64,000 bases of DNA from Candidatus Levyibacteriota bacterium. Its GTDB lineage: Bacteria; Patescibacteriota; Microgenomatia; Levybacterales; GWA1-39-11. A program made the position numbers and the translations under genes. This document shows positions 14,627 to 45,127 of the stretch, piece by piece; position 1 is the first letter of the stretch; every line of letters begins with the position of its first letter. The DNA is taken from assembly GCA_018062815.1 (NCBI GenBank), contig JAGORM010000001.1, positions 87,029 through 151,028 of the forward strand, in the 5' to 3' direction. The notes below the pieces were generated by a model. That model was not told the origin of the DNA, ran no database searches, and worked only from the letters and a program-made list of their open reading frames with translations.

Positions 14627-15174
14627 TAAAAATGGATGATAAAACACAAAAACCAAAAGTAGAAGAAAATCTAGAGGAGATAGAAGAATTAGATGATGAA
14701 TTGGATGAAGAAGAAGAGGAGTTGGCATCAGATCACAGGGAATTAGACGAGTTGCGGGAGAAAAATAAAAGTCTTGAAGATCAATTGAAGCGAGCAGTTG
14801 CAGATTATAGAAATCTTGAAAATAGAGTTCGGGAAGAGCGCTTAGACTTTGTTAAGTACGCAAACAGATCGCTCATAGAGCAGTTGCTTCCGGCATTTGA
14901 CACGATGCTGCTTGCCGAAAAATATACAAAAGATGAGAATTTAAAAATTACTGCAAAACACATACTGGAAGTATTGAAGGTTGCAGGAATTGAAAAAGTT
15001 GAGACGGTTGGTAAAAAATATGACCCTATAAGTATGGAGGCGGTAGAAGTAGTAGAGGGGGAGAAGGAAAAGGTAATTGATGAGACACAGCCTGGGTTTA
15101 TGATATATGGAAAAATTATAAGACCGGCAAGGGTTAGAGTTGGAGGGAAAGAAGAGCCGAAAGAGCAAAAATAG
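14620..15174 (+). CDS. grpE: Nucleotide exchange factor GrpE
   Basis: Acidic N-terminus, long coiled coil, conserved RNLENRVREERLDFVKYANRSLIEQLLPAFD region. 7-nt overlap with hrcA. Confidence 0.9.
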   Translation: MVIKMDDKTQKPKVEENLEEIEELDDELDEEEEELASDHRELDELREKNKSLEDQLKRAVADYRNLENRVREERLDFVKYANRSLIEQLLPAFDTMLLAEKYTKDENLKITAKHILEVLKVAGIEKVETVGKKYDPISMEAVEVVEGEKEKVIDETQPGFMIYGKIIRPARVRVGGKEEPKEQK

Positions 15175-15241
15175 ATTACAATATTTTATGATTCTTGAAA
15201 TTTAATAGAGAATACATAATAATAAGGAGGAATAAAAAAAT

Positions 15242-17176
15242 ATGTCTAAAATAATAGGAATAGATTTAGGAACTACAAATTCATGCGTTGCAGTAATGGA
15301 AGGTGGCGCGCCAAAAGTAATATTTTCTGCAGAAGGAAGAAATGTGACACCATCTGTTGTAGATCCGGTAGACCGAGTAGTTGGTGATGTAGCAAAGAGG
15401 CAGATGGTTTTAAAACCGAAACGCATCATTTTTTCTATAAAACGTCTTATGGGTCGTCGCTTTAATGATCCGACAGTTCAACAGGACATAAAGCTCCTTC
15501 CTTATACTGTAAAAGCAGGAAAGGATGGTCTTGCGGTTGTGGAAGTTGATGGGAAGTCATATACACCTCAGGAGATTTCAGCAATGATTTTACAAAAGAT
15601 AAAGTCTGATGCTGAGTCGTATTTGGGAGATAAAATCACACAGGCAGTTATTACAGTTCCTGCGTATTTTGACGATGCGCAACGACAAGCAACAAAACAA
15701 GCGGGTGAGATTGCAGGGTTAGAAGTTCTACGTATTGTAAACGAGCCTACGGCTGCTGCGCTTGCCTACGGATTGGACAAAAAACACGCACATACAATTG
15801 CCGTATATGACATGGGCGGCGGTACGTTTGACGTATCCATATTAGAGTTAGGAGAAGGTGTTTACGAAGTAAAATCTACAAACGGAGATACACATTTGGG
15901 TGGAGATGACTTTGATCAAAAAATTATAGATTATATTGCGGATGAATTTAAGAAAGATAATAATATTGATCTAAGAAGTGACCCTCAGGCATTACAAAGA
16001 CTTAAAGAAGCAGCTGAGAAAGCAAAGATTGAATTGTCATCATCATCTGAAGCCGAAATTAATCAACCGTTCATAACTCAAGGGCCAAATGGACCACTTC
16101 ATCTAACAATGAAGTTAACTCGTGCGAAGCTTGAGAGTATAGTAGGAGATTTAATTACAAAGTCATTTAAGTCTGTTGAATCAGCACTTAAAGATGCAGG
16201 GCTAAAAGCATCTGATGTAAATGAGATTATTATGGTTGGGGGCATGACAAGAATGCCAAAGGTCGTAGAAGAGGTAACAAAATTCTTTGGAAAAGAACCT
16301 AATAAGAGTGTAAACCCGGATGAAGTAGTGGCGATTGGTGCAGCTGTTCAGGCAGGAGTATTGGGAGGAGACGTGAAAGATGTACTACTTTTAGATGTAA
16401 CTCCTTTAACTCTTGGAATTGAAACATTAGGCGGAGTTGCAACACCGCTTATTAATAGAAATTCAACAATTCCAACCAAAAAGTCTCAGGTATTTTCAAC
16501 TGCAGCCGACAATCAGACTCAGGTAGAGATTCATGTTGTTCAGGGCGAGCGTCCTATGGCTGTGGACAATAAATCTCTTGGAAGATTTGTTTTGGATGGA
16601 ATCCCGCCAGCACCTCGTGGTGTTCCTCAGGTTGAAGTTGCATTTGATATTGATGCTTCAGGAATTCTTTCGGTTTCAGCAAAAGATAACGCAACAGGGA
16701 AAACACAAAGCATTAAGATTACCGGAGGCACAGGTCTTTCAAAAGATGAAGTTGAAAGGATGACAAAAGAAGCGGAAATTCATGCTGAAGAAGATGAGAA
16801 GAAAAAGGAATTGATTGAAGTAAGAAATCGAGCAGATGGGCTTATCTTTACCGCAGAAAAATCATTAAAAGATCTGGGGGAAAAGGTTCCTGCCGACTTA
16901 AAATCGGCTGTAGAGGGAAAAATTTCTGCGCTGAAAGAAGCACTAAAAACTGAAGATAAAGCAGACATGGAAGCAAAGACGCAAGAACTGTCTGACCACT
17001 TGTCAAAAATAGGCGAGACTATGCAGAATCAGGCAGGACCGTCTGGTGAACAATCAGGTAACGGAGAGCCTGGGGCGGAACAGGAAGGTAAAGATGCATC
17101 ATCACAAACGGATCAAAGTGGATCAGAATCCTCTACAAATAAAGATGAAGCGGTAGAAGGAGAAGTAGTAAATTAA
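15242..17176 (+). CDS. dnaK: Molecular chaperone DnaK (Hsp70)
   Basis: [16 protein letters not shown], and full NBD+SBD architecture; 644 aa. Confidence 0.97.
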
Positions 17177-17234: not shown

Positions 17235-17924
17235 TTAATCTGAATGCGCTATTTTTTTTGGGATAACTATTTTCTTTATTGATTCAACCATTCCTTTGTG
17301 GGCAAGCTTATTAAATAAGCGACGGGCCTCTCTCTCTGATGCATGATAATCAAAGAAATTATTTGTTTTTTTTGTAACTCCAACCCCTAAATCACCTAAG
17401 ATAACTTTCGTATTTCCATTCGCGTCTAGGATAAAAAAATATGTGTCTTCGTATATATTAAAGCCAGCTCTATCTGCCTTTTGTGAGATTTCAATAAGTT
17501 GCGTTTTAACACTTTGTTTATTTTTTACAATCGCCTCAAAGTCTATTGTTTTATTGTGTATATCATTTGTTGAGAAAACACATTTTTTACCACCTTCAGT
17601 CAGGTCCGTTATTATTATTTTGTTAGATCCTTCGACTTGCCTAATGGTTAAAGGTACAGGTAGGTCAGCTTTTTTTAATTGCAGGTAGTGTTTTATGTAT
17701 TCGTCAGGAACATAAAATTCCCATGCCCGGGCATATTTTGTATCTCTTTCTGCAAATTCTCCTACCGTTCTTTCCCTTCCATTTTTTACAAGTATTAGTT
17801 CTCGGGTCACATATCTTGCTTCATTACCACTTCCGATATATCTACTGTTTTCCCCAAAAAATACTTCTGATTTACGACCTGTTAGGGGAGAAAATAATGT
17901 TTTTCTTTCCTTACCTTCTGGCAT
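17235..17924 (-). CDS. Hypothetical protein (no recognisable domain)
   Basis: 229-aa intact ORF convergent with dnaK and divergent from the pilin-like gene. No motif recognised. Confidence 0.5.
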   Translation of the reverse strand: MPEGKERKTLFSPLTGRKSEVFFGENSRYIGSGNEARYVTRELILVKNGRERTVGEFAERDTKYARAWEFYVPDEYIKHYLQLKKADLPVPLTIRQVEGSNKIIITDLTEGGKKCVFSTNDIHNKTIDFEAIVKNKQSVKTQLIEISQKADRAGFNIYEDTYFFILDANGNTKVILGDLGVGVTKKTNNFFDYHASEREARRLFNKLAHKGMVESIKKIVIPKKIAHSD

Positions 17925-18284: not shown

Positions 18285-20447
18285 ATGTTAAAACAACTGC
18301 CCATATTGTTTTTTTCAACGCTTCTTTTTTTGGTATTTTCCTTTCATGCTAGCTATGCTCAATCAACATCAGTTGTTAATCTCTCTGGTAATCCCTCAGG
18401 AGCTGTAAACGTTAGAATTGCGGATGACTCAGATCCGGTTCAAATTGATGACTCAATTACTCCAACGATCGGAGATTGGATACCTGATTCAACAGTAACT
18501 TTTGTGGGAAAAACTGCAAATAGAGCTGGAGATTTTCTTGATTGGACTATCAGAAATTATGATTGGACTTGTGTAAAAACTAATACCGGGTCATGTACGA
18601 GTTCAGGGAATCCGTTGGTAGGGTTTTGGGCATTGATTAGAAATATTGTTTACGCACTTCTTGTTATATTGGTTTTGGTTGCCGCGTTTGTAATGATAAT
18701 AACGCGTGGTAGAAACATAACAATTACCCGTTTTATCCCACGTTTTATATTTATTATTGTTTTAGTAACCTTATCATATGCTCTCGTACAATTTATTTAT
18801 CAAGTGACGGATATTATTCAGGGATTTTTTCTTAGAACTGATGGAAAGCTTATATCTACCAAAGACTTAATATTTATCGGATTTGATTATAAAAATTTTG
18901 AGGGAGCAAGACGATACGGTTCCCAGTATGATGAATCCGCTTTTATCACCCTTTTACTGGTACGGCTTACGGCGCTTACCTATTATGTTATGACTGGGGT
19001 GTTGTTGGTAAGAAAAATTATTTTATGGTTTTTTATTATCTTGTCTCCTGTTTTTCCGCTTTTGCTTTTTTTCAAGCCAATAAGAAATACGGGTAAGATA
19101 TGGGTGGGTGAGTTTTTCAGATGGTTATTATATGCGCCTCTGTTTGCAATTTTTTTACAAGGGTTAGTTGTATTATGGAAAAGTAAGGGAGGTATACCAT
19201 TAGCATTTGATTTTACAAACGTAGGGAATGTTATTTATCCGACAGCAGTAAACATTTTGATAGGTGGTCCTGGGCAAAAGATATTTTTTGATACTGAAAC
19301 AAGCTCCAACAGCGTTAATTTACAGGACACATTCGCGCTATATGTTGTAGCACTGTTAATGTTATGGGTTGTGATTATACTACCATTCTTGCTTCTTAAA
19401 ATTTTCTTAGATTACTTAGGTGGGTTATCCCTTCAAGATAATGTTACAATGAAAAGACTTCTGAATCGCGGATCTGAATTCTTACCTCTTAACCGTCCTC
19501 CTGCCCCTTCCCCATCTGCTCCACTCCCTCCGTCGCAGGGTGCAGGTAGGGCAATGCAAATACCATTTAATGCTGCTGCCTCCCGAAGCATATCTGAAAA
19601 TAGAACAATCAGTTCAGCACAGTCTAATCGTTCAATAACATCAATTCCTGTTAACGCACAGATATTGCAACTCGCAAACTTATCAGTGCCAAAAATGCGA
19701 GATATTGCCCGCTTTGAAACATCTATGGTAACCCATAATTCATCAAAGATGCAGGACGTTTCCAGACTTAAAACATCACTTACAAGAATTTCAAATCCGT
19801 CTACTATTACTGCCCCATTAGAGAGAGAAAGATATACACAAGTAAAACAACAATTAATGTCAGAAAAACAAAAAGGCAACGTTCTAGCTTCCTCAATTTT
19901 GACTGCAGCAAATACGACTGCCGCACCGTACCAAAAGGGAATGGTGTCATCTCAACAAGTGCATTTGCCACAGGCAAATAAAGTTCAACAAGTAAGTATA
20001 GAGGACTATGAAGAAGTAAGAAAAATGTGGCAAGATACGTATCAAAACTCAACTCCTCCAACTGATCTTTCGGGAAAGAAAGATTCAAGAGAGGAGTGGA
20101 TTAAAGGAGATATAGATAAAATTAATCAAGCTATAACACTTTTAAATTCAGTTGATCCTGTAAGAACCCAAGAGGGAATGGATATGGTTTCAAATATACT
20201 TCCGTTCTTAATGATTGGTGGATTCTCCAAGACTGAAGTTATAGCTTATCTCAAGGCTAAATTAGAGGCAGCCAAAGATGTTCTTTCAGCAAGTTCAAAG
20301 AAAAACGAAGAAGATGATACCATGATGGATCGTGAAGAAAAAACTGCAACCACACAGAAGCATATGAGTACCCATGCTGAGGCAGAAATCCCAACAGTAG
20401 ATGATGGTGCAAAAAAACTTGAAGATTTAAGAAAACAAGGATTATAG
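18285..20447 (+). CDS. VirB6/TrbL-like polytopic membrane protein with long hydrophilic C-terminal extension
   Basis: Signal peptide, roughly 90-aa exported domain, then about 6 TM helices. C-terminal half of about 350 aa begins with a Pro-rich segment (NRPPAPSPSAPLPPSQ) and is otherwise polar and S/T-, K/E- and Q-rich. Confidence 0.35.
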   Translation: MLKQLPILFFSTLLFLVFSFHASYAQSTSVVNLSGNPSGAVNVRIADDSDPVQIDDSITPTIGDWIPDSTVTFVGKTANRAGDFLDWTIRNYDWTCVKTNTGSCTSSGNPLVGFWALIRNIVYALLVILVLVAAFVMIITRGRNITITRFIPRFIFIIVLVTLSYALVQFIYQVTDIIQGFFLRTDGKLISTKDLIFIGFDYKNFEGARRYGSQYDESAFITLLLVRLTALTYYVMTGVLLVRKIILWFFIILSPVFPLLLFFKPIRNTGKIWVGEFFRWLLYAPLFAIFLQGLVVLWKSKGGIPLAFDFTNVGNVIYPTAVNILIGGPGQKIFFDTETSSNSVNLQDTFALYVVALLMLWVVIILPFLLLKIFLDYLGGLSLQDNVTMKRLLNRGSEFLPLNRPPAPSPSAPLPPSQGAGRAMQIPFNAAASRSISENRTISSAQSNRSITSIPVNAQILQLANLSVPKMRDIARFETSMVTHNSSKMQDVSRLKTSLTRISNPSTITAPLERERYTQVKQQLMSEKQKGNVLASSILTAANTTAAPYQKGMVSSQQVHLPQANKVQQVSIEDYEEVRKMWQDTYQNSTPPTDLSGKKDSREEWIKGDIDKINQAITLLNSVDPVRTQEGMDMVSNILPFLMIGGFSKTEVIAYLKAKLEAAKDVLSASSKKNEEDDTMMDREEKTATTQKHMSTHAEAEIPTVDDGAKKLEDLRKQGL

Positions 20448-20497: not shown

Positions 20498-23161
20498 ATG
20501 TTCGGAAATTTATTTAACACAGCAAAACAAGATGACCAGATAGTGACACACAATACAAGGGTTGATATTGATAACCCTATGCTAGGGGGAGCAAATATTT
20601 CCATTAACTCATCAGGTAATCCAAGTCAGATACAACCCTCCCCATCAATTTCCCAGAACCCTGTAGGGATGGACCCACAAAAAAGAGAAAACATGTTTGC
20701 TTTATCCCGCCTTGATCCACGATCACTTCAAGTTCTTCATCATGCTCAGGAGGAAACCAAGCGATTGTCTCAGGAGTTTATTAATCCGGAGCAACTACTT
20801 TTAGGACTTTTTTATGATGGGGATGTTTTTCGCATATTAGAACAATTTAATGTAGATGTTGCAAAATTAACCCATGAGATTCAAGCAAAAGAAAGGCCTG
20901 GTACTTTTTCGGGACAGCCCACTATGGGGCCAAGCGTTGTTAAGATATTTGATGAGGCATATTCAAACGCAAAAAAAAGAGGTGCTTCATTTGTCTCCCC
21001 TGAGGATATAATGGTTGCGCTTTTTTCTGAAACATCAACCTCTGAATTCTTAAAAACATTTGGTGTGCAGAGAGATAAATTAGAGGAAAAATTGTCTAAA
21101 TCTACAGGCTATGTTTCATCTTCAAGAAAAAGCGTGTTAGAAAAATACGGTATTGACCTGACTCAGGAAGCAAAGGACGGCAAGTTAGATCCTATTGCCG
21201 GCCGCGAGCGGGAAACAGAGCGTTTGATTCACATACTATTAAGAAGAACCAAGAATAATCCGATAATTATTGGCGAGGCGGGAGTGGGAAAGACAGCAAT
21301 CGTTGAGTCGCTTGCTCTTAAAATCGCAGAAGGGTCGGTTCCTCACGACCTTTTAAATAAGCGAATTATTCAACTGGAGCTTGCTTCACTGGTTGCAGGA
21401 GCTTCACATAGGGGTGAGTTTGAGGAAAGATTGCAGGACGTGATTAAGGAAACACAAGCATCAAATGGCCAAGTAATATTATTCATAGATGAAATTCATA
21501 CTCTTATCGGGACAGGGGACACGCAAGGAGCTATGGATGCTTCAAATATAATAAAACCATATTTAGCAAGAGGGCAGTTGCAACTTATCGGAACCACAAC
21601 TACTGCTGAGTACCGTAAATATTTTGAAAAAGATAAGGCCTTTGAAAGACGTTTCCAAGCTGTATTAGTTGACGAGCCGACTGAAGAAGTTGCCGAGCAG
21701 ATGCTTGAAGTATTAAAACCCAAATATGAAAAATTTCATTCAGTTGAGATTACTCCAGAGGCGATTAAGGCGGCTGTTCATCTTTCAAAAAAGTATATAG
21801 GAGAAAGATACTTACCCGATAAGGCTGTTGACTTATTAGATGAAGCGGCAGCAGAGGTAAAATTGCAGCATACAGAAGGAAAAAGACAGGACAATAAGGT
21901 CATAAAATCAGACATAGAAAAAGTCGTGTCCGCATGGACTGGAATTCCTATAACTCGTCTCACTGAGGATGAATCTCAAAAGTTAATTCACCTGGAGGAT
22001 ATCATTCACAAACGATTAATTGATCAAGAAGAGGCAGTAGCTGCAGTATCTGAGGCGGTAAGACGTGGGAGGATTGGTCTTGCAAGTGCAAACAGGCCAA
22101 TAGCATCATTTATCTTTTTGGGTCCAACTGGAGTTGGAAAAACAGAGTTGGCAAAAACTCTCGCGGAGATTTTATTTGGAAGGGATGATCTTATGATTAG
22201 GCTTGATATGTCAGAATATATGGAAAAGCATGAGGTTGCAAAACTTATTGGAGCTCCTCCAGGATACGTTGGGTACGAAGAAGGTGGACAGCTAACAGAA
22301 GCGGTACGTGCAAAACCGTATTCAATAGTGCTCTTAGATGAAATAGAAAAAGCTCATCCAGATGTATTTAATATTTTACTTCAGCTACTTGAAGATGGAA
22401 GACTTACTGACAACAAAGGGAATACGATATCTTTTAAGAATACTATTATTATCGCAACGTCAAATATAGGATCTTCACTTATTCAACAAACTCTTTTAAC
22501 TCAAAGCTCAAACGCAACGCAGGTGGTTTCTCCTGCTGAAGAAGCAAAAAGATTTTCATCTCTATCAAAAACCCTGATGGATGAGTTAAGAAAATTTTTT
22601 AAACCAGAGTTGTTAAATCGATTTGATGAAATAGTAATGTTTAAACCATTGCGTCAGCAAGATATGATGCAGATTGCAAAAATAGGCATATCTAAGACAC
22701 AAAAATTATTAGCGGAGCAAGAGATAAACCTAACTATAACGGAGAAAGCATTAGGTGTATTATCAAAAGAAGGATACGATCCTGTATACGGAGCGCGTCC
22801 GTTAAGAAGACTTATACAGTCAGCAATTGAAAATCCAATTGCGATACTACTTATTAATAAAACTTTTACCGTGCACGATACTGTTCAAATTGATTATGAT
22901 GATGCAAAGGCTCAGTTCACATTTACAAAGTTGACACAGCCAGTGGACAAACAGGAACAGCAGCCCATACCCGCGTCCTCAGCACAAGTTGCAACCCAAC
23001 AATCTAATATGGCAGCAGCTGGTTCGGTTGAAGCAGCAAATGGGAATGGAATTTTATCTGATATCGCAAAGGAACATTCGGCTGCTATCCCTCCTCCCGT
23101 ACAATCTGCGCCCCCAATGTCATCTGTTGACTCAAGTGGTACTATAATGCAACCTGCCTAA
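20498..23161 (+). CDS. ClpB-like Hsp100 AAA+ ATPase lacking the M-domain, with N-terminal extension and Q/A/P-rich C-terminal tail
   Basis: Two Clp_N repeats. D1 Walker A GEAGVGKTA and Walker B ILFIDEIH. D2 GPTGVGKTELAKTLAE, Walker B VLLDEIEKAH. ClpB-like D2 segment TSNIGSSLIQQ with no ClpP-binding IG[FL] loop. Only about 28 aa separate ...DLLDEAAAEVKLQ and VVSAWTGIP, where ClpB carries a roughly 120-aa coiled-coil M-domain. Confidence 0.8.
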   Translation: MFGNLFNTAKQDDQIVTHNTRVDIDNPMLGGANISINSSGNPSQIQPSPSISQNPVGMDPQKRENMFALSRLDPRSLQVLHHAQEETKRLSQEFINPEQLLLGLFYDGDVFRILEQFNVDVAKLTHEIQAKERPGTFSGQPTMGPSVVKIFDEAYSNAKKRGASFVSPEDIMVALFSETSTSEFLKTFGVQRDKLEEKLSKSTGYVSSSRKSVLEKYGIDLTQEAKDGKLDPIAGRERETERLIHILLRRTKNNPIIIGEAGVGKTAIVESLALKIAEGSVPHDLLNKRIIQLELASLVAGASHRGEFEERLQDVIKETQASNGQVILFIDEIHTLIGTGDTQGAMDASNIIKPYLARGQLQLIGTTTTAEYRKYFEKDKAFERRFQAVLVDEPTEEVAEQMLEVLKPKYEKFHSVEITPEAIKAAVHLSKKYIGERYLPDKAVDLLDEAAAEVKLQHTEGKRQDNKVIKSDIEKVVSAWTGIPITRLTEDESQKLIHLEDIIHKRLIDQEEAVAAVSEAVRRGRIGLASANRPIASFIFLGPTGVGKTELAKTLAEILFGRDDLMIRLDMSEYMEKHEVAKLIGAPPGYVGYEEGGQLTEAVRAKPYSIVLLDEIEKAHPDVFNILLQLLEDGRLTDNKGNTISFKNTIIIATSNIGSSLIQQTLLTQSSNATQVVSPAEEAKRFSSLSKTLMDELRKFFKPELLNRFDEIVMFKPLRQQDMMQIAKIGISKTQKLLAEQEINLTITEKALGVLSKEGYDPVYGARPLRRLIQSAIENPIAILLINKTFTVHDTVQIDYDDAKAQFTFTKLTQPVDKQEQQPIPASSAQVATQQSNMAAAGSVEAANGNGILSDIAKEHSAAIPPPVQSAPPMSSVDSSGTIMQPA

Positions 23162-23185: not shown

Positions 23186-24940
23186 ATGCAAAGAATATTT
23201 CATGTGTTACGGCGTATTGATACCCGTTTTTTTCTCTTACCCTTTTTATTATTTGCATTTGGAGCAATCGGATATTTAGGTATCCAGGGGGTTTTTTTTC
23301 AAAAAGATAAAATATTTCCACAGGGTGTACGGTATATTCCGGATCAAATAATAGTCAAATATAAAATTGGACAATCTCCAGATGAGCTTCAGAATGCAGG
23401 GAAAACAGAAGATAGAAAGGTACTGTTGTCTGCACTATCAAATGTTGGAGTTTCTTCTCAAAAGAGGTTGTACGTGTCAGAAAATTCTTTGCTTGAAAAT
23501 TATTATGTATTAACTCTCAAGTCTGGTTTTACAGTCCCAGATGCATATAGCAATATTAAAAAGATACCTGAAATAGAAAGTGCTGCCCCTGATTATATAT
23601 TAAAAATACAGGAAGCCCCAAATGATCCATATTACCCATCTATGTGGAATCTTTCTAAAATTGAGGCAGAAATGGTGTGGAATAGAGTGCATGTAGATGG
23701 GAAGGTTATAGTTGCAGTTATAGATACAGGAGTTGACTATCAACACGAGGACTTACAAGACGTGGTAATAAAAGGTAAAAATTTTATTTCTAATGATAAT
23801 AATCCGATGGATGATCAGGGGCATGGGACTCATGTTGCAGGAATAGCTGCTGCAGTTACAGATAATGGTATAGGAATAAGTGGGGTCTCCTGGGGGGCTA
23901 AAATTTTGGCTATTAAGGCGTGTGATAAAAATGGAGACTGTAGTACGGCAAATGTTTCAAGAGCTATTCAGTATGCCGTAGACAACAATGCAAAAATTAT
24001 TAATGTCAGCATTGCAGGGAGCGGTTCATGTAACGGAACGTATACTGATGTATTAAGATATGCATTAAGAAAAGGTGCAATGGTTGTTGTTGCTGCTGGA
24101 AACGGAAATAATGGAGACGGAATAGGTGTGGATGTAGAATCTCAAATACCTGCATCATGTGAAGGCTCTATCGCAGTGGGTTCAATTACAGCAGAAGGTA
24201 AAAGATCAAATTTTTCTAATTTTGGTTCTAAGGTTGAGATTTCCGCTCCCGGCGGCGCTGGACCTTGTACAATTGAGAGTTGTATTATTTCTACTAGCAT
24301 TAACAACTCATACTCACTTCGTTCTGGGACTTCTATGGCCGCCCCTCAGGTAAGTGCTGTTGCTGCGCTCCTTTTGTCCAATGATAGAAATCTTTCTATG
24401 TCAAAAATTCGTTCCTGTATTCTAAATGGTGGGAACAGTCTTCAAACAGATAAAAATATCGGGCTTCTTTTGAATGCTCAAAATTCATTGAGTATATGTA
24501 CTAAAACTGAACCTACCCCCACCCCAAAAAATATTAATAATATGTCATCTATTGCAGGTACAGTGTTTATTGACACTAATAAAAATAACAAATTTGATTC
24601 AACAGAAAAAACATTATCATCTGTCCAGATCATTTTATCTGGCTTAACTAATGATAGTGTAATAAGTAATTCAAAAGGAAAATATTTATTTTTGAGATTA
24701 CCAAGTGGTCAACACACAATATCTGCGACATTAAACGGGAAAAGCGTAATTACACCTATTAATATTTCTGTTGTATCAAACAATGCTGCTCAGCTTAATA
24801 TACCTGTACCCTCCGAAAAGGTAATTATTAAGCCAACACCTTCTGTTAGTGAACAAAAAACCTCTTCTCAATGCTTTGTCGATCCAGACTGCTTGAAAAG
24901 CAAGAAGTCAGTTCAAATATGTTCTTTTCAATGCGAATGA
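23186..24940 (+). CDS. Membrane-anchored subtilisin-like serine protease (peptidase S8) with C-terminal Cna-B/SdrD-B-like domain and Cys-rich tail
   Basis: N-terminal TM helix. Catalytic triad motifs VAVIDTGVD, GHGTHVAG and GTSMAAP. TPTP linker, then GTVFIDTNKNNKFD...KGKYLF...GQHTISAT resembling B-type repeats. C-terminal CFVDPDC...CSFQC. Confidence 0.85.
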   Translation: MQRIFHVLRRIDTRFFLLPFLLFAFGAIGYLGIQGVFFQKDKIFPQGVRYIPDQIIVKYKIGQSPDELQNAGKTEDRKVLLSALSNVGVSSQKRLYVSENSLLENYYVLTLKSGFTVPDAYSNIKKIPEIESAAPDYILKIQEAPNDPYYPSMWNLSKIEAEMVWNRVHVDGKVIVAVIDTGVDYQHEDLQDVVIKGKNFISNDNNPMDDQGHGTHVAGIAAAVTDNGIGISGVSWGAKILAIKACDKNGDCSTANVSRAIQYAVDNNAKIINVSIAGSGSCNGTYTDVLRYALRKGAMVVVAAGNGNNGDGIGVDVESQIPASCEGSIAVGSITAEGKRSNFSNFGSKVEISAPGGAGPCTIESCIISTSINNSYSLRSGTSMAAPQVSAVAALLLSNDRNLSMSKIRSCILNGGNSLQTDKNIGLLLNAQNSLSICTKTEPTPTPKNINNMSSIAGTVFIDTNKNNKFDSTEKTLSSVQIILSGLTNDSVISNSKGKYLFLRLPSGQHTISATLNGKSVITPINISVVSNNAAQLNIPVPSEKVIIKPTPSVSEQKTSSQCFVDPDCLKSKKSVQICSFQCE

Positions 24941-24983: not shown

Positions 24984-25838
24984 ATGAAGAAAGACTATTA
25001 CGAAATATTAGGAGTCTCAAAAAACGCTACTCCTGAAGAATTAAAAAGGGCATATAGAAAATTGGCCTTACAGTATCACCCAGATAAAAATAAAACCCAG
25101 GAAGGGGAAGAAAAGTTTAAGGAAATAAATCATGCATATGAAGTGCTTTCGGATTCTACTAAGCGTGCAACATATGACCAGGTAGGTCCATCCGGATTTG
25201 ATGGAAGTGCGGGATCACCTTTTGGTGGGCAGAGAGGAGGTCAGTACGGACCGTTCACATACTCATATGGTAACAGTGGGGAGGGGGCAAATTATGATTT
25301 TGGCGGTTTCTCCGACCCTTTTGAGATATTTGAGCAATTTTTTGGGGGTGGGTACGCAAAGCGTAAACCAAGATATAGTATAACAATAGATTTTTTAGAG
25401 GCTGTTCATGGTACTTCAAAAAAAGTGTCCATAGACGGAAAAACTCAAACAATTAAAATACCTGCAGGGGTAGATAATGGATCAAGAATTCAATTCCCAA
25501 ATTATGAAGTGATTGTAGGAGTAAGAGGGAGTAGTAAATTCCAGAGGGAAGGGAATGATATTGTAGCTGAAAGTGTAATTTCATTGCCTATCGCCATTCT
25601 TGGTGGCACTATTGAAATAGAAACAGTACATGGTCAAGTAACGCTTAAAATCCCTGCGGGAACTCAGCCTGATACCTTAATGAGAGTAAAGGGAAAAGGC
25701 GTTCCTCGCGTGAGAGGTGGGGGAAGCGGGGATCATTTTGTTCGAATTAAAATTCAAATCCCCACAAGAATAAATTCACGACAAAAGGAACTGCTTAATG
25801 AGTTTGACGCAGAAAGCCGCAAGAAGAAATGGTTTTAA
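24984..25838 (+). CDS. DnaJ-class J-domain chaperone (type II/CbpA-like, no zinc-finger domain)
   Basis: J domain with HPD ([32 protein letters not shown]), G/F-rich region, and C-terminal substrate-binding beta domains. No CxxCxGxG repeats. Confidence 0.85.
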
Positions 25839-26256: not shown

Positions 26257-28626
26257 ATGAAAAATTTTGACATGTTTAATTTATACGTTTTTTATAATAA
26301 TGTGTTCGTAAAGGCATTTCGGTTTTTTGCACTTTTGTTTTTGACAATAGTCTTGTTTTATGTAAGAAATGACCTATTTCTTTTTAGAATAATTCTTAGT
26401 TTCTATGTGTTATATCTTGTAAATGAAATTTTTGTCCATTTTAAAATTAATAAATCAAGTCCGCTTAATACAGTAAGCATTGATAGCAATCTGCCTCAGT
26501 TGGCTATATTGTTTAACGTAAGATATTTGCTTAGCATAAAAAATAATAATTTCTTTATTGAAAAATTGATAAAACAGAAAGACGTTGCATTTTTTATTGC
26601 AAAAATTGATGGGTTTGATTCTTCCTCAGCTCAAGTTAATGTTATAGGTTTGTTAAATAGAGCACGTTCTTTAGCGCAAATCTGCAAAGGAACTTACATT
26701 ACGGCAGCTGATATATTTGCAGCCTATCTTCTTTTGACAGAAAGCGAAAGCCACCTTTTGGAGCAGAAAGAACTAACGGAAAACGATATATTAGAAATAC
26801 TTTTATGGTGTAGAGAAAAGTACAATCTAGATAAAGTAAATTTTATTAATATGCATTTTACAGGAGCAGGCGTTTTTGACTTTTTTATATATGGTTGGAA
26901 CACTCAATTAAAAGAATTCTCGTTTGATTTAACATACAGTTTAATCGGAAAAAATACATCTCCTATTGTAGGAAGGGAAAAAGAATTTTCTCAGATGGTG
27001 GGAATACTTTCAAAAAATTCTACAAACAACTTATTAATAATAGGCGAACCTGGAGTTGGAAAATCTTCACTGGTTTCGTTTTTGGCTCTGGAGGCATACA
27101 GAAATACAAGGTTTATTTTGCACAACACAGTTGTATATGAACTTCTTGTTGATAGATTGCTTGCGGGGGTGTCTGATGCAGGAGAACTGGAGACGCGTCT
27201 AGGGTTATTGCTTTCTGAAATAGAACATATTGGAAATGCTGTACTTTTTATTCAAAACATGGAAAATATTTTTGGGGCAGGCGGATTTGGTTTTGATATG
27301 TCAGGCATATTATTTTCTTATTTAAAAAATGGAAAGGTGCAAATAATAGGTACAACAACTCCATCTTTTTATAAATCAGTTATTGAAAAGAAGTCTAGTA
27401 TTATGAGCTTATTCGAGTTGTTAAGATTATATGAGCCTGATCGTGATGTTTCATTGCGGATGATTGCAGCCCATGTTGATAATATTGAACGGGAGTACAA
27501 TGTAAGCATATCATATAAGGCAATTCATGAGACATTAGAATTGGCTTTCTCATTTCTCCCAGAAACATTCCTTCCGGGTAAAGCAATACTTCTTCTTCAT
27601 GATGTTTCATCCAGGGTAAGACTTGCGGGAAGAAATCGGGTCGAGAAAGAGGACGTAATACAGTTTGTTCAAGAGAAGACAAACATTTTACTTGAGAGAC
27701 CAGATATAGATGAGAAAAAAGTTTTATTATCCCTTGAGCAAGAATTACATAAGAGAATAATAGGACAAGATGAGGCAGTAATTGCAATTTCAAAGGCAAT
27801 AAGAAGGCTAAGAAGTGGTTTTTCTCAGAATAAACGTCCTATTTCCACCTTTCTTTTTCTAGGTCCTACTGGAGTAGGGAAAACAGAAACTGCAAAGGCT
27901 TTATCACAAATTTACTTTGGGGATGAGGCAAATATGATAAGGCTTGATATGAGTGAATACCAAACGCAAAATGAGGTAGATAGATTATTAGGCGGTGTTC
28001 CCGGGGGAATTGAAATAGAAAATTCACTGCCTGAACAGGTTAGACTTCATCCCTTTTCGCTCATATTGTTAGATGAATTTGAGAAGGCACATCCACACAT
28101 ATTAGATATATTTCTGCAAATTTTTGAGGATGCTCGGCTTACTGATAATAGCGGAAGAACGGTTTCATTTAAAAATACCATAATTATTGCAACAAGCAAC
28201 GCTGGGTCAGAATCAATTCGTGAGATGATGCATGAGAAGAAAGATCCTGCTTCATTAAAGAATATTTTAGTAGAGGCTCTACTTAGAGATGGAGTGTTTA
28301 AGCCTGAACTACTAAATAGATTTGATGATGTGATTATTTTTACACCACTCTCTTCTATTGAGGCAGCTGAAATTGCGAAACTTATCCTTGCATTATCATT
28401 AAAGTCTCTTGAGGACGATCAAATTTACATTACATTTGACGATAAGGTTAAAAATAAAATAGTGCAAGAGTCGTTTGATGAAGAGGCGGGCGCTCGGAAT
28501 ATGAGAAGGTATGTGGGATCGACAATTGAAGATTATTTATCAAGGCTTATACTGGAAGATAAATTGAAAAAGGGAGCACATGCTACTTTGACAGTCGACG
28601 AGAACAACAATTTTGTATTACAATAA
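26257..28626 (+). CDS. Membrane-anchored Hsp100/Clp-like AAA+ ATPase paralog: N-terminal TM helices, degenerate D1 (Walker B DE replaced by QN), intact D2, no M-domain
   Basis: 2 N-terminal TM helices (FRFFALLFLTIVLFYV, LFRIILSFYVLYLV) and a degenerate Clp_N-like segment. D1 Walker A GEPGVGKSS but Walker B AVLFIQNMENIF (27253-27258 = CAA AAC). D2 GPTGVGKTETAKALSQ and ILLDEFEKAH, and TSNAGSE. No ClpP IGF loop. Confidence 0.75.
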   Translation: MKNFDMFNLYVFYNNVFVKAFRFFALLFLTIVLFYVRNDLFLFRIILSFYVLYLVNEIFVHFKINKSSPLNTVSIDSNLPQLAILFNVRYLLSIKNNNFFIEKLIKQKDVAFFIAKIDGFDSSSAQVNVIGLLNRARSLAQICKGTYITAADIFAAYLLLTESESHLLEQKELTENDILEILLWCREKYNLDKVNFINMHFTGAGVFDFFIYGWNTQLKEFSFDLTYSLIGKNTSPIVGREKEFSQMVGILSKNSTNNLLIIGEPGVGKSSLVSFLALEAYRNTRFILHNTVVYELLVDRLLAGVSDAGELETRLGLLLSEIEHIGNAVLFIQNMENIFGAGGFGFDMSGILFSYLKNGKVQIIGTTTPSFYKSVIEKKSSIMSLFELLRLYEPDRDVSLRMIAAHVDNIEREYNVSISYKAIHETLELAFSFLPETFLPGKAILLLHDVSSRVRLAGRNRVEKEDVIQFVQEKTNILLERPDIDEKKVLLSLEQELHKRIIGQDEAVIAISKAIRRLRSGFSQNKRPISTFLFLGPTGVGKTETAKALSQIYFGDEANMIRLDMSEYQTQNEVDRLLGGVPGGIEIENSLPEQVRLHPFSLILLDEFEKAHPHILDIFLQIFEDARLTDNSGRTVSFKNTIIIATSNAGSESIREMMHEKKDPASLKNILVEALLRDGVFKPELLNRFDDVIIFTPLSSIEAAEIAKLILALSLKSLEDDQIYITFDDKVKNKIVQESFDEEAGARNMRRYVGSTIEDYLSRLILEDKLKKGAHATLTVDENNNFVLQ

Positions 28627-28633
28627 TATTACT

Positions 28634-29635
28634 TTGAAAATATCAATCTTTGAAGTTGAAAAATGGGAGGAAGATTTTTTAAAAAAATCTCTTGGGAATT
28701 CTGATGAATTATCATTTTTTAATCATCCCTTAACTATCGCAGACTTAGGAGCAATAAAAGATGCTGAGGTAATAGTGGTTTTTATTTATTCTTCTGTAAC
28801 AAAAGAAATTATTGATGCCTTACCTAATTTAAAATTTATTGCAACAATGTCAACAGGCTTTGATCATATTGATCTTGCAGCCTGTAAGGAAAAGCATATA
28901 CTTGTAAGCAATGTTTCAGGATATGGTGAAATTACAGTCGCGGAACATACCTTTACCCTTCTCCTGGCGCTTTCTCATAGACTTATTGAATCTTACGAGC
29001 GGGTAAAAGAAGGATATTTTTCCCCGGAGGGCTTAACCGGATTTGATCTGTCAGGAAAAACATTAGGAGTTGTAGGGGTGGGAAGTATTGGGACTCATGT
29101 TATAGAAATAGCTCACGGATTCAATATGAATGTTTTAGGGTATAAACGAAATCCCGATCCTGAACTAGAAAAAAGATTTAATTTTAAAATTGTTGATCTT
29201 CCAACGCTTTACGCACAGTCTGATATTATTTCACTTCATGTTCCATATACAAAAGAAACGCACCATATGATAAATGAAGAAACACTTTCTCAGATGAAAG
29301 ACAATGTAGTTCTAATAAATACGGCAAGAGGACCATTAATTGATACAACTGCGGTTATAAAATACTTAGATAATGGTAAATTAAGGGGATTAGGTTTGGA
29401 CGTGTGCGAGAACGAGCCAATGTTAAGGGAAGAGAAGCAAATATTGTCAAAGGAATTTAACAAAGAGGATCTGTTATGCTTACTTGAGGAAAAGATGCTG
29501 TTAAATTATAAAAATGTAATAATAACCCCTCATAACGCGTTTAATAGTAAAGAGGCATTAGAATTAATATTGCAAACAACGGTTAATAACATTTCAGGGT
29601 TTATCAGTAACTCCCCGCAGAATATAGTTTCCTAG
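28634..29635 (+). CDS. D-isomer-specific 2-hydroxyacid dehydrogenase (NAD-binding; D-lactate/phosphoglycerate dehydrogenase family)
   Basis: NAD fold GVVGVGSIGTHV and catalytic-region GLDVCENEP. TTG start at 28634 gives the typical MKISIFEVE... N-terminus; the track ATG at 28613 overlaps the upstream stop. Confidence 0.8.
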   Translation: MKISIFEVEKWEEDFLKKSLGNSDELSFFNHPLTIADLGAIKDAEVIVVFIYSSVTKEIIDALPNLKFIATMSTGFDHIDLAACKEKHILVSNVSGYGEITVAEHTFTLLLALSHRLIESYERVKEGYFSPEGLTGFDLSGKTLGVVGVGSIGTHVIEIAHGFNMNVLGYKRNPDPELEKRFNFKIVDLPTLYAQSDIISLHVPYTKETHHMINEETLSQMKDNVVLINTARGPLIDTTAVIKYLDNGKLRGLGLDVCENEPMLREEKQILSKEFNKEDLLCLLEEKMLLNYKNVIITPHNAFNSKEALELILQTTVNNISGFISNSPQNIVS

Positions 29636-29638: not shown

Positions 29639-31720
29639 CTATAACAAGAAAGATCTCAATAATTTCAGTCTTGTGTAGAATGGTAGTGTTTTTATAAAAA
29701 TAGTTTTCACTAAGACTTTGCGTTTAGTTGCTCTAATTACAATAAAAATAGATAAGAAGGTCACTATTACAAAATATACCCATGTATCTTTTCTGTAATT
29801 GTCGTTTTTATATATGTATGCCCCTGCAATTTTTATTTCTTTCTTTCCTTCTGTTTTGTTGCCGGTTTTTGTTGTCGCAGCAAGTACTTTTCCATTTTTT
29901 CCAGAAGAGACTATAAAATAACTCTCTGCTGATGCATCAATTACAGTATCTTCTCCTGTGGTCCCAGTTACATAAGAAAGCGCCGTATAATTTCCCGCAG
30001 GTGCATTTTCTGTAAGAACTAGTCCTGTTGTTAATCTTTTAGTTTTCTGAGCCTCAATGTCATCAAGATCAAATGAAGGTCCTCCCATAAACTCTCCATC
30101 CTTATAAAGCCCAATTAATAATTTTGCTCCGTATATCTTTCCGGTTCCGTTATTTTTTGCATCTACAAAGAACGTAACAGTGTCGCCAGGATTTACGAAT
30201 TCGCCTACATTATTCTTATTTGTAATAGTGAGCTTTCCTCCAGACTCCTTAGAATGAATTTCTTTCTGACTTATATCATTTGATTTTTGTTCCTGCGTAT
30301 TTTCTTCCTGTATGTTTTCAGAAATAAACTTATTTGCTCCTCCTATGTTTCCTGCCCAATTCCCAAAAACATTAATAAAAGCAAAGAAACCATTCGTATT
30401 GAAAAAATTTGAGTTGATAAAGTTAATCAGCGATACCCCAGAATATGCATTCCCCGTGTGTATTGTTCCATTTTCACTCTGAATAGTGTTTTTACCTGTG
30501 TCCGCTTGAGCTGAGACATTATTTTGTATTATTGCTGTATTGTCTGTTTTAAGCGTTGTATCACAGTTACATTCAGCGGTGCTGTTTGAAAAATTTAATG
30601 TCTCGCCCCCTTCTTGAGGTTCAAAATTATCCCACCCTAAAAAACTACCAGTCCAATTCCCAAGAACATTTATAAATAATTTCTGAAACATTGCGCCTAC
30701 CGCGTTTGTGTTTACTATGTCTAAAATGTTTACAATGCTGTGTGATGTACCGGTTTTTATTGTTGAAGAAGATGTAGCAGTATCTATTCTGTTTTCTCCG
30801 GTGTTTGCGTCAGCAGTAACATTGTTTTCCATTTTAATATCATTTTTCATGGTTGCGGATACGCCACAGGATGCACATTCAGATTCATTGTGAAACTCAG
30901 GAAGGATTATATTGCCTGAAAAATCACCAAATATATTAATAGTGACAATGTGAATAACAGAATCAACAACAGTAAAATTTGCTTTGTTCATGAGTGAGAC
31001 TACAGAATACGCATTCCCTGTTTTAATAAGAGCATTGTCTCCTTCAGCTATTTCGTTTCCTCCTGTAGATGCAGTTGCAAGTACATCATTTGCAAGATAG
31101 ACATAATTCTTTGCATCAGTTACGGAAACGTTAACAATTGGGCTTGTGTTTTTATCCTGAGAAATAATTGTGTACGCAAGATTAAATGGGGTAGATAAAT
31201 CTATATTTTCTGCATTATCTACAAAGATATTAATAGTTTGATTTATAACTTGGGAATTAATTGAGTTTGTGTTTACTGTATTGTCAATTGATATGATTGT
31301 GGTTGCTTCCCCTGTAGTAATAGAAGAGCTTGAATTCTGTTGAGAAGTAGGCGGAGAATTTGGGGACGACTCAACAAGGGGAGTAGTTGAAGTTGGAGGA
31401 GATGATGGTTCTTCAGGATCAGTAGGGGTTAACTCAGCCGAGGGAGTTGAGACATTCTCACCGGTACTAGAAGTGGCGGTGGTTGTGTCAGTTGTTGCAG
31501 CTGTATTTGTTTGTGTTGTGTTTTCAGTGTCTTCAGTCGGGGGAGTAGTAGGAGTGAGTATTGTGGGAGTTATTGTCGGATCAATTTGCTGTTCTGTAGT
31601 AGGCGTAGGGGTGTTAGTTGGTATCTCATCAAGAGCATAGACTGAAAACGGTGAGATAGAGCTTACTCCTATAACAAGAAATATAATAAAAAGTGAGAAA
31701 TATCTTTTAAATCCTGCCAT
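29639..31720 (-). CDS. Secreted repeat protein (TGNAYS-type repeat family) with T/P-rich linker and C-terminal TM anchor
   Basis: Signal peptide. TPTP/T-rich low-complexity region. At least 3 copies of a roughly 80-aa repeat (...NVSAQADTGKNTIQSENGTIHTGNAYSGVSLIN..., ...NVTADANTGENRID...IKTGTSHSIVNIL..., ...TGGNEIAEGDNALIKTGNAYSVVSLMN...). C-terminal hydrophobic helix followed by basic residues. Confidence 0.6.
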   Translation of the reverse strand: MAGFKRYFSLFIIFLVIGVSSISPFSVYALDEIPTNTPTPTTEQQIDPTITPTILTPTTPPTEDTENTTQTNTAATTDTTTATSSTGENVSTPSAELTPTDPEEPSSPPTSTTPLVESSPNSPPTSQQNSSSSITTGEATTIISIDNTVNTNSINSQVINQTINIFVDNAENIDLSTPFNLAYTIISQDKNTSPIVNVSVTDAKNYVYLANDVLATASTGGNEIAEGDNALIKTGNAYSVVSLMNKANFTVVDSVIHIVTINIFGDFSGNIILPEFHNESECASCGVSATMKNDIKMENNVTADANTGENRIDTATSSSTIKTGTSHSIVNILDIVNTNAVGAMFQKLFINVLGNWTGSFLGWDNFEPQEGGETLNFSNSTAECNCDTTLKTDNTAIIQNNVSAQADTGKNTIQSENGTIHTGNAYSGVSLINFINSNFFNTNGFFAFINVFGNWAGNIGGANKFISENIQEENTQEQKSNDISQKEIHSKESGGKLTITNKNNVGEFVNPGDTVTFFVDAKNNGTGKIYGAKLLIGLYKDGEFMGGPSFDLDDIEAQKTKRLTTGLVLTENAPAGNYTALSYVTGTTGEDTVIDASAESYFIVSSGKNGKVLAATTKTGNKTEGKKEIKIAGAYIYKNDNYRKDTWVYFVIVTFLSIFIVIRATKRKVLVKTIFIKTLPFYTRLKLLRSFLL

Positions 31721-31806: not shown

Positions 31807-32286
31807 CTATTCAACAACGTTTGTGTTAACAACGTTATTTACTGCCACTCCTGTTGCAGAAGCTCCAGTGCCTGAAAGTTGCGCACCAAGAATCGCAAAG
31901 TTTGCGTTCTTCCCTGAGTTGGAAGTGCCTTTAACGTTTGTTACAACAAAAGCATGATTTGCTTGTGTTGTATTTCCGTTTGCTACTCCAACGTTCAGTT
32001 TAGGGCTAACACACCCACAACTTGTTGTGTTGTAGTTCACTTGTTGCGTGACGCCAACGCTTGTAGAGGATGCTCCGGTTGTTGATCTCTGAAGTCCTAC
32101 TGCTGCAGCGTTAAGGTTTTTTCCAGTGTTTGAGACTCCCTTAACGTTTGTTACAACAACAGCATTATTTGTCTGTGTTGTGTTTCCATTTAAAGCACCA
32201 ATATTTACTGCAGCAAATGTTGGGGTTGCAGCGCCAAGCATTACTGCTCCTGCTGCTGCTGATACTACTAATTTTTTAAAATTCAT
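31807..32286 (-). CDS. Small secreted protein with two tandem about-60-aa repeats of the same family as the 693-aa surface protein
   Basis: Start chosen at MNFKK (signal peptide ...ATPTFA) preceded by AAGGAGGTG. Tandem repeats NGNTTQTNNAVVVTNVKGVSNTGKN... and NGNTTQANHAFVVTNVKGTSNSGKN... separated by SCGCVSPK. Confidence 0.6.
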   Translation of the reverse strand: MNFKKLVVSAAAGAVMLGAATPTFAAVNIGALNGNTTQTNNAVVVTNVKGVSNTGKNLNAAAVGLQRSTTGASSTSVGVTQQVNYNTTSCGCVSPKLNVGVANGNTTQANHAFVVTNVKGTSNSGKNANFAILGAQLSGTGASATGVAVNNVVNTNVVE

Positions 32287-32322
32287 ATATTTATTCACCT
32301 CCTTTTTTCTAATATAACTAAA

Positions 32323-32363
32323 AAAAATCGGCTGTGTTCCCATGGGAAATAAAACCGATTTTT
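32323..32363 (-). promoter_or_regulatory. Nested palindromic element (AAAAATCGG...CCGATTTTT enclosing perfect palindrome TTCCCATGGGAA) in the leader of the repeat-protein gene
   Basis: Outer 9-bp IR at 32323-32331 and 32355-32363; inner 12-bp perfect palindrome at 32337-32348. On the minus-strand RNA the outer stem is followed by a U7 run, making it terminator/attenuator-like. It sits about 40 nt upstream of the start codon and downstream of a TTGTCT-15-TATTAT promoter-like sequence. Confidence 0.35.
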
Positions 32364-45115: not shown

Positions 45116-45127
45116 TGCACATATAAG

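Follow-up and report, generated by a model that had tools for sequence, protein, structure and literature searches.

The window analyzed here, a stretch of 64,000 nucleotides from contig JAGORM010000001.1 of a Candidatus Levyibacteriota bacterium (assembly GCA_018062815.1, positions 87,029 to 151,028 of the forward strand), encodes a membrane-anchored, two-ring paralog of the Clp/Hsp100 proteins, which we call TM-Clp for its transmembrane (TM) helices. The first of its two AAA+ modules (D1) has the features of a conserved pseudo-ATPase, the second (D2) carries a full set of catalytic motifs, and the canonical pore tyrosines are missing from both. The gene directly follows that of a small membrane protein, and the pair is widespread in bacteria of the candidate phyla radiation (CPR). 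Such an arrangement would suit a membrane remodeling ATPase that is run by D2 and acts with its small partner in quality control of membrane and envelope proteins.

TM-Clp belongs to the Clp/Hsp100 superfamily by its fold and D2 motifs, in line with the original prediction, which had taken the open reading frame (ORF) for an Hsp100 paralog. Residues 218–781 are 39% identical to a second Clp protein encoded nearby (20498..23161), and Pfam matches are to AAA_2 (5.5e-49), ClpB_D2-small (2.4e-15) and AAA_lid_9 (1.8e-07), with D1 matched weakly. The NCBIfam models for ClpB (TIGR03346, 444 bits against a cutoff of 1232), ClpA (TIGR02639, 425 against 993) and ClpV (TIGR03345, 387 against 885) all score below half of the family cutoff. 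The full-length AlphaFold model, made from 61 family sequences, has a predicted local distance difference test (pLDDT) score of 83.1 and a predicted template-modeling (pTM) score of 0.68. Foldseek superposes its body on ClpC, ClpC1, ClpB and ClpA protomers with template-modeling scores (TM-scores) of 0.78–0.85 normalized to the target, the best E value being 3e-51 (ClpC). A protein identical to TM-Clp was deposited independently from a metagenome-assembled genome (MAG) of Candidatus Levybacteria (P0001). Its public annotation starts at V16 and gives 774 amino acids, so that the 15 residues before TM helix 1 are lost; the conservation of these residues among homologues (Y..F.N pattern) speaks for the ATG at 26257 as the start.

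The defining feature of D1 is the pair Q333-N334 at its Walker B position, which aligns with the DE of LFIDEI in the neighboring Clp protein. The original prediction had read QN at this site beside a retained Walker A, and both the codons and this alignment confirm it. About 70 full-length relatives were recovered at 35–85% identity, the named ones being Levybacteria, and motifs were scored in 66 full-length members. The pair is QN in 38 of these, PN in 16, EN in 5 and some other pair in 7; DE occurs in none. The arginine finger is gone as well (SLF for RRF in TM-Clp; RR in 0/66 relatives), and so is the pore-loop tyrosine (SDAGEL for KYRGEF), with no aromatic residue in this loop in 65 of the 66. 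Since it has neither the catalytic Glu nor the arginine finger, D1 is predicted to be non-hydrolyzing. The Walker A K[ST] is kept in 52/66 and damaged in the other 14, as it is in many members of a wider clade described below. In the window, where Walker A and sensor 1 are intact, ATP binding without hydrolysis is plausible as a property of this D1, not as a rule for the whole family.

The conservation of D1 is not that of a domain falling into disrepair. Mean pairwise identity in the family is 51% for the D1 large subdomain, a value between those of the N-domain (30%) and the D2 large subdomain (63%), and a D1 signature, IQNIENIFGGGGFxFDxSG, is near-invariant. Conservation of this kind argues that D1 is a selected pseudo-ATPase, as judged from its residues, under purifying selection and not in decay. 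The probability is negligible that QN stems from faulty sequencing, from a mutation that arose recently in the strain, or from degeneration of the gene. DE is absent from all scored relatives across their range of identity, the adjoining ENIFGGGGF is nearly invariant, the ORF is intact, the same protein recurs in an independent deposit, and D1 holds its 51% identity. The orthologue alignment alone rules out an error or a recent mutation.

All of the catalytic motifs are present in D2, which is predicted to be an active ATPase with sites shared between subunits. Among the 66 core members the Walker B pair is DE in 65, the arginine finger NRFD is found in every one, and GAR is conserved. The claim of an intact D2 (ILLDEFEK) is in this way upheld for the ATPase motifs; the tyrosine of the GYVG pore loop is nevertheless missing. 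GYVG occurs in 0/66 core members, and the loop is three residues shorter, variable and sometimes deleted (P0052). Also absent from all family members in the alignment, with the loop region shortened, is the ClpP-docking tripeptide [IVLMF]GF, for which the canonical ClpC references in the same alignment carry LGF, VGF, FGF or MGF. TM-Clp is predicted from this to be unable to dock ClpP and not to be a component of a ClpP protease. The deposited P0001 is named "ATP-dependent Clp protease ATP-binding subunit" although it lacks the docking loop, and because of that absence the annotation is probably functionally wrong for TM-Clp genes. An M-domain was not found either: there is no insertion relative to the M-domain-less neighbor, and AlphaFold renders the D1 small subdomain as a plain four-helix lid (residues 396–475).

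The N-terminus of TM-Clp is a hydrophobic hairpin. Kyte–Doolittle hydropathy (19-residue window) peaks at 2.29 for residues 16–34 and at 1.83 for residues 42–60, AlphaFold places helices at 16–35 and 40–64 with pLDDT about 90, and both helices are found in every full-length relative. R22 and E57 are invariant across the core family, while in the wider clade the position of R22 is basic in 65/81 members, that of F59 is aromatic in 76/81, and P69 is kept in 63/81. The lysines after helix 2 (HFKINK) and the necessarily cytoplasmic location of the ATPase would place both the N-terminus and the body after the hairpin inside, with an external turn of ∼4 residues between the helices. The original prediction had proposed these two helices, and that part is borne out by hydropathy, model and conservation. 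It had also held that they replace the Clp N-domain, of which a degenerate remnant is left, and this part must be rejected. A complete eight-helix domain follows the hairpin; modeled alone (residues 70–200, pLDDT 91.2), it finds only Clp/Hsp100 N-domains among its top 50 PDB matches, including those of ClpC, ClpC1, ClpA, ClpB, Hsp104, PfHSP101, ClpD, ClpT and ClpV, with TM-scores up to 0.59 and weak single E values (0.09–1). Profile comparisons lend weak support (canonical Clp_N repeat 2 by hhalign, E = 0.002; ClpA N-domain, E = 0.013), and Pfam gives no Clp_N match. As modeled, the N-domain is retained in full but highly diverged, and is recognizable as Clp_N at the level of fold only. Between it and D1 lies a family-specific motif rich in aromatic residues and glycine, HFTGAGVFDFFIYGW, in which G205, G213 and W214 are invariant and F201, G203, F207 and D208 are at least 90% conserved; its pLDDT is low (54–73).

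The small polytopic membrane protein that had been noted upstream has two clear TM helices and is a regular neighbor of TM-Clp. Its stop codon lies 6 nt 5′ of the TM-Clp ATG. The protein has an FW[YF] segment at its N-terminus and C-terminal TM helices at residues 57–80 and 84–108 with conserved K70 and E88, and has no match in Pfam, NCBIfam or PADLOC. The 31 detectable close homologues share FW[YF], an invariant F[KR]PLKNEYR, and the two C-terminal TM helices with conserved Lys and Glu, so charged residues are conserved in the TM helices of both the Clp hairpin and the partner. When species-representative genomes were scanned with the D1 signature segment, 28 genuine core loci were obtained. 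L009, from a related species, has 81% nucleotide identity to the window. A match in L037 (Nomurabacteria) was discarded, the peptide pattern having fallen in a cysteine desulfurase and the Clp gene there being a canonical ClpB. The partner gene is directly 5′ of TM-Clp in 28/28 core loci, typically with a 4-nt overlap, and also in L001, L002, L004, L005 and L040. Most of the MAG records behind L010–L035 are titled "uncultured Gammaproteobacteria bacterium" and come from one bulk third-party annotation (TPA) submission; their gene content and synteny match Levyibacteriota, and the organism names look like placeholders or errors.

Outgroup TM-Clp genes also have a homologous small ORF upstream (L006, L007, L008, L038, L041 and L042). 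Those directly upstream of P0077, P0078, P0091 and P0093 are collinear with the window partner (hidden Markov model conditional E ∼5e-7), and the outgroup layout reads [FY]P[FL]..WW[YF]..G, then F.PMYGQ.D, then two TM helices. The exception is P0072 (L039), which has no partner. A profile of the outgroup partners retrieves 2,515 cluster representatives, all of ∼120–130 amino acids, hypothetical and devoid of Pfam domains, the named ones coming from Saccharimonadales, Uhrbacteria and Patescibacteria. In two loci taken from this family the downstream gene encodes a Clp with TM helices whose D1 is dead (DN or HG) and whose D2 is live, with neither GYVG nor a ClpP loop.

The wider clade was delimited by searching 1.84 billion representative proteins with a profile of the N-terminal module (residues 1–235). 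There were 163 matches; the full-length ones all have 780–910 amino acids, and in none of them does the module occur apart from a Clp body. Each of the 61 tabulated full-length representatives carries TM segments at its N-terminus and keeps the D2 Walker motifs intact, and none has a D1 arginine finger, a D1 pore-loop Tyr or GYVG, the nearest being P0286 with GYLP. At the D1 Walker B they show everything from DE to complete degeneration, and the Ser/Thr of Walker A is often lost. A neighbor-joining tree, used unrooted as midpoint rooting gave no information, sets 81 TM-bearing Clp proteins apart from 23 without TM helices by a single split. By this split, and by the constant fusion of the N-terminal module to a Clp body, TM-Clp is a single evolutionary unit. 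Named members include Candidatus Berkelbacteria and "Patescibacteria group". One outgroup protein (P0077, L008 472..3192) has an extra N-terminal CxxC…CxxC zinc-ribbon-like segment (CSACGG…CELCGG) before its TM helices, reminiscent of the zinc-binding N-termini of ClpE and ClpX.

Taken together, these data outline a proposed CPR module of TM-Clp plus a small partner, characterized by one or more N-terminal TM segments, Clp_N, a D1 that lacks both the arginine finger and the pore Tyr, a D2 that is intact but has neither GYVG nor a ClpP loop, and a gene for a small two-TM protein directly upstream. The window, the 28 core loci and the outgroups (Saccharimonadales-type, Uhrbacteria and Patescibacteria MAGs) show all of these features, P0072 being the only exception. 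The original statement that such proteins are not a described class agrees with literature phrase searches for membrane-anchored or membrane-bound ClpB, ClpC or Hsp100 and with wider searches, which found no prior description; most subscription journals lie outside their coverage, and the result is absence of evidence only. The features of the pair and of its heat-shock neighbors are collected in Table 1.

Table 1. Positions in the window of TM-Clp, its domains and motifs, the partner gene and adjacent heat-shock genes
Feature	Position	Strand	Basis
TM-Clp, membrane-anchored two-ring Clp/Hsp100 paralog, 789 aa plus stop	26257..28626	+	ORF, Pfam, NCBIfam, AlphaFold, Foldseek
TM helix 1, aa 16–35, invariant R22 (26320-26322)	26302..26361	+	hydropathy, AlphaFold helix 16–35, family alignment
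TM helix 2, aa 40–64, juxtamembrane motif NEIFVHFK, invariant E57 (26425-26427)	26374..26448	+	hydropathy, AlphaFold helix 40–64, alignment
Divergent complete Clp_N-type N-domain (modeled), aa 80–189, eight helices	26494..26823	+	separate AlphaFold model, fold search, profile matches
Aromatic/glycine-rich motif HFTGAGVFDFFIYGW, aa 200–214	26854..26898	+	alignment
D1 AAA+ module, aa 237–480	26965..27696	+	alignment, family comparison
D1 Walker A GEPGVGKSS	27043-27069	+	sequence
D1 non-aromatic pore loop GVSDAGEL	27166-27189	+	alignment
D1 Walker B equivalent VLFIQN; QN (Q333-N334, codons CAA AAC) at 27253-27258	27241-27258	+	alignment
D1 signature ENIFGAGGF	27262-27288	+	alignment
D1 sensor-1 GTTT	27349-27360	+	alignment
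D1 arginine finger, lost (SL)	27406-27411	+	alignment
D2 AAA+ module, aa 481–789, full set of catalytic motifs	27697..28623	+	Pfam, alignment
D2 Walker A GPTGVGKT	27862-27885	+	sequence
D2 non-aromatic pore loop LGGVPGGIEIENS	27988-28026	+	alignment
D2 Walker B ILLDEFEK	28063-28086	+	sequence
D2 sensor-1 TSN	28192-28200	+	alignment
D2 arginine finger NRFD	28315-28326	+	alignment
D2 sensor-2 GAR	28489-28497	+	alignment
Small membrane partner, 112 aa	25912..26250	+	ORF, alignment of 35 homologues, hydropathy
Partner cytoplasmic motif FKPLKNEYR, conserved	26050-26076	+	homologue alignment
dnaJ (J-domain plus DnaJ_C), directly upstream of the pair	24984..25838	+	Pfam
CIRCE-like operator (13823-13849), then hrcA, grpE, dnaK	13823..17176	+	pattern search, gene content

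The surroundings of the pair connect it by position to the heat-shock genes. The window order is hrcA-grpE-dnaK (13.9–17.2 kb), two unrelated genes, the second Clp, a secreted S8 protease, dnaJ, the partner and TM-Clp; dnaJ is directly 5′ of the pair in 12/28 core loci and also in L001, L002 and L004. In L004, a deep branch of the family, hrcA-grpE-dnaK-dnaJ-partner-TM-Clp-nusA runs uninterrupted, with a CIRCE (controlling inverted repeat of chaperone expression) at the hrcA promoter. Compared with this locus, the dnaJ-partner-TM-Clp string of the window is a displaced tail of the heat-shock operon. The two ORFs that lie between dnaK and the clp-dnaJ string, and break the operon contiguous in L004, are 17235..17924 (−; 229 amino acids, no Pfam match) and 18285..20447 (+; 720 amino acids, with a weak TrbL/VirB6 match of 2.9e-05, just below the Pfam cutoff). 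CIRCE-like sites in the window occur only 5′ of hrcA and of an ORF resembling a small heat-shock protein. This second repeat (2455..2481, TTGGCAGTC-N9-GAGTGATAA) lies ∼85 nt 5′ of a 149-amino acid ORF (2567..3016, +) that by eye resembles an alpha-crystallin-type protein and is a putative small heat-shock protein. The HrcA regulon in the window appears to consist of hrcA-grpE-dnaK plus this putative protein, and direct control of the pair by HrcA and CIRCE was rejected.

A secreted protease gene stands between the canonical clp and dnaJ in the window (23186..24940, +), L001 (2214..4082) and L002 (1966..5085). The first two encode S8 subtilases with an N-terminal hydrophobic segment and a fervidolysin-like prodomain, and the third an M4/M28 peptidase; the recurrence suggests a "proteostasis island" that includes an extracytoplasmic protease. 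On the other side, a gene for a D-isomer-specific 2-hydroxyacid dehydrogenase (28613..29635, +), whose TTG start at 28613 would overlap the TM-Clp stop by 14 nt, has counterparts within a few nucleotides downstream of TM-Clp in 24/28 core loci. We do not regard the dehydrogenase as a functional partner, since L004, L005 and every outgroup locus lack it; its position is probably inherited synteny.

We favor, with about even confidence, the explanation that TM-Clp is a membrane remodeling ATPase run by D2 that works with its partner in membrane and envelope protein quality control. TM-Clp subunits would form a ring ATPase of the Clp/Hsp100 type that is anchored in the membrane and presumed hexameric, because the D2 active sites need a trans-acting arginine. 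This ring and the small partner would together make up a machine of two components on the inner side of the cytoplasmic membrane, the two-helix hairpin tethering the divergent Clp_N and both AAA+ modules. D1 may serve as a nucleotide-stabilized or purely structural assembly ring, as NSF-D2 or Pex1/Pex6-D1 do, which would leave D2 as the only motor. The partner would bind through its FKPLKNEYR loop and charged TM helices, as an adaptor or as an entry point for clients, and ATP hydrolysis by D2 could then remodel or extract membrane-embedded or membrane-proximal proteins. In Levybacteria this membrane and envelope quality control may be tied to the DnaK/DnaJ system.

Several observations weigh against this explanation. 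In the window, neither canonical nor genome-adapted CIRCE patterns match just 5′ of clp, of dnaJ or of the pair, and terminator-like hairpins follow dnaK both there and in L004; heat-shock co-regulation of the pair is therefore suggested by gene position only. Outside Levybacteria the pair is not beside dnaJ and lies near mraZ, rsmH and Glycos_transf_4, so that the link to DnaK may be lineage-specific. Most seriously for classical threading, the canonical gripping tyrosines are missing from both rings, and in the window subclade (at least 55% identity) the D2 pore loop has no aromatic residue at all in 26/28 members. TM-Clp therefore probably grips its substrates weakly or in an unconventional way, and it may not thread them processively.

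This main difficulty for a classical unfoldase model motivates an alternative in which the D2 ATP cycle acts as a Torsin-like switch, toggling the partner or a joint TM bundle without threading and so regulating processes such as envelope synthesis or division. Torsins are related to Clp D2, associate with the membrane via a hydrophobic segment at the N-terminus, have no aromatic pore loops, and require the TM cofactors LAP1 and LULL1 (PMC5425593). Such a switch would lead one to expect what is seen: GYVG is missing in each of the 66 core members and in almost all of the wider clade, the D2 loop is variable, shortened or deleted, and the partner is nearly obligatory. Gene neighborhoods in other CPR phyla point the same way: a Glycos_transf_4 (MraY/WecA-type) gene is downstream of the pair in L007, L008, L041 and L042, with DUF192 in two loci, and in L042 the pair comes right after mraZ, rsmH and an FtsL-like single-TM coiled-coil gene, at the start of a division and cell-wall cluster. 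However, D2 keeps its own arginine finger and full catalytic motifs, unlike Torsin, and the two-ring body and a substrate-binding-type N-domain are retained. Moreover, 27/38 of the deeper family members keep one Tyr or Phe in the D2 loop, suggesting that gripping was ancestral. On balance we regard a non-threading switch as a serious but unlikely possibility.

A broader proposal goes further than either the switch or the remodeling ATPase. TM-Clp may be a CPR-wide membrane-embedded AAA+ machine that has abandoned threading and in which D2 hydrolysis acts via the joint TM bundle to insert, extract or gate envelope or division components. We think it quite unlikely that all of this holds; if true, bacteria would have in this machine an equivalent, in principle, of the Torsin-cofactor or Bcs1-type mechanisms, and CPR bacteria possibly an envelope factor that is both essential and specific to them.

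The conserved hairpin and partner helices also invite the idea of a trans-membrane transport motor, in which the ring sits under a conduit of 12 Clp TM helices plus those of the partner and powers the export, insertion or extraction of particular proteins across the membrane. Analogies are offered by HSP101 of the Plasmodium PTEX translocon and by Bcs1. Conserved charged and aromatic residues in the hairpin and partner TM helices do suggest a functional assembly and not a passive anchor, the cluster also encodes secreted proteases (of type S8 in the window and in L001, M4/M28 in L002), and the N-domain model resembles that of PfHSP101 (4irf, 4iod), though it resembles other Clp N-domains equally. 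The geometry is less accommodating: the external loop of the hairpin spans only ∼4 residues, and no part of the partner of any size lies outside the cytoplasm and membrane. A motor that exports by threading would have to grip its substrate with pore loops of a kind missing here, and the protease neighbors are not conserved beyond a few genomes. We consider a transport motor very unlikely.

An anti-phage role, as part of a module akin to Dodola or other candidate defense systems, is highly improbable. TM-Clp does match DolB, the ClpB-like ATPase of Dodola (DolA/DolB), in PADLOC (3e-39), as well as PDC-M37B (4e-31). Yet the canonical neighboring Clp scores comparably on the same models (DolB 8.8e-28), and the hits are generic to AAA_2; the partner has no PADLOC match. 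The position of the pair is stable and syntenic across species beside housekeeping genes, unlike mobile defense islands. The defense reading, and with it membership in Dodola, was rejected.

Other genes of the window deserve a brief description. The neighboring Clp (20498..23161, +) has 887 amino acids with Clp_N, D1 and D2 that are active by their motifs, and GYVG, and it lacks an M-domain and the xGF tripeptide. Its D1 pore loop reads SHRGEF for KYRGEF, and Q/P/S-rich extensions of ∼70 and ∼85 amino acids flank its N- and C-termini; it fits none of ClpA, ClpB and ClpC cleanly. Downstream of the dehydrogenase, 29639..31720 (−) encodes 693 amino acids with no Pfam match, a signal-like N-terminus, a long T/P/S/N-rich region and a C-terminal hydrophobic helix. 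It adjoins 31807..32343 (−), a 178-amino acid protein with internal repeats (…VVTNVKG.SN.GKN…), and the two are likely CPR surface proteins. An efflux block (41786..49909, −) comprises an AcrB-family resistance-nodulation-division (RND) transporter of 1109 amino acids, two HlyD-type fusion proteins, a MacB/FtsX-type permease and a 231-amino acid ORF; a similar pair of ACR_tran and fusion protein lies near the module in L002. The organism is generally thought to have no outer membrane, which makes an RND transporter with fusion partners noteworthy.

Hsp100/Clp proteins are textbook soluble unfoldases, with a mechanism defined by pore-loop tyrosines and two active rings. TM-Clp represents a conserved natural lineage that is membrane-integral, has one working ring by prediction, dispenses with the canonical gripping residues and is nearly always accompanied by a tiny partner. 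It is kept across several phyla of genome-minimized CPR bacteria, where few genes are dispensable, and its partner belongs to a large unannotated family (about 2,500 cluster representatives, no Pfam model). These observations raise the questions of whether a Clp ring can work without pore tyrosines and of how the membrane and envelope proteomes are maintained in organisms with so small a genome.

Among known systems, TM-Clp is closest to ClpC, ClpA and ClpB, with which it shares the fold, the order of Clp_N-type N-domain, D1, D2 and D2-small, 35–39% identity and canonical D2 catalytic motifs. It differs from them in its TM hairpin, in a D1 without Walker B Glu or arginine finger, in the loss of canonical pore Tyr, and in its nearly obligatory partner. 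Of the hallmarks of class I Clp/Hsp100 proteins, the two tandem AAA+ modules with AAA_2 and D2-small are present, whereas a competent D1 and aromatic pore loops (KYR, GYVG) are not. An M-domain is required for ClpB and ClpC, and a ClpP-docking loop for ClpA and ClpC. TM-Clp has neither the coiled-coil M-domain nor an above-cutoff score for the ClpB equivalog, and neither the docking loop nor an above-cutoff score for ClpA. It is likewise not a ClpV/TssH, given a TIGR03345 score below the cutoff and no type VI secretion system genes in the window or related loci. In Thermus thermophilus a small protein gene and an Hsp100 gene reportedly also follow dnaJ, in a dnaK-grpE-dnaJ-dafA-clpB operon. 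Their products, unlike the pair described here, are soluble: DafA is a DnaK-DnaJ assembly factor, and Thermus ClpB is a canonical disaggregase with M-domain and pore tyrosines.

Analogies outside the Clp proteins are found in three places. Double rings of the NSF, Pex1/Pex6 and p97 type pair one inert assembly ring with another that is the motor, the same split of labor as that proposed for TM-Clp; however, they belong to another AAA clade, are not integral membrane proteins, and keep aromatic pore loops in their active rings. FtsH is an AAA+ ring with two N-terminal TM helices per subunit and membrane partners, and it serves membrane protein quality control and the heat-shock response. TM-Clp resembles it as a presumed AAA+ ring tethered by two N-terminal TM helices and accompanied by a membrane partner, whereas FtsH joins an M41 protease to just one AAA module, which is of the classical clade and has an aromatic pore loop, and TM-Clp has two Clp-type modules and no Peptidase_M41 match. 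Torsins, finally, are single-ring eukaryotic proteins of the endoplasmic reticulum lumen without an arginine finger of their own, whereas TM-Clp is a two-ring protein, predicted to be cytoplasmic, that has its own D2 arginine finger and a small partner without an AAA-like fold.

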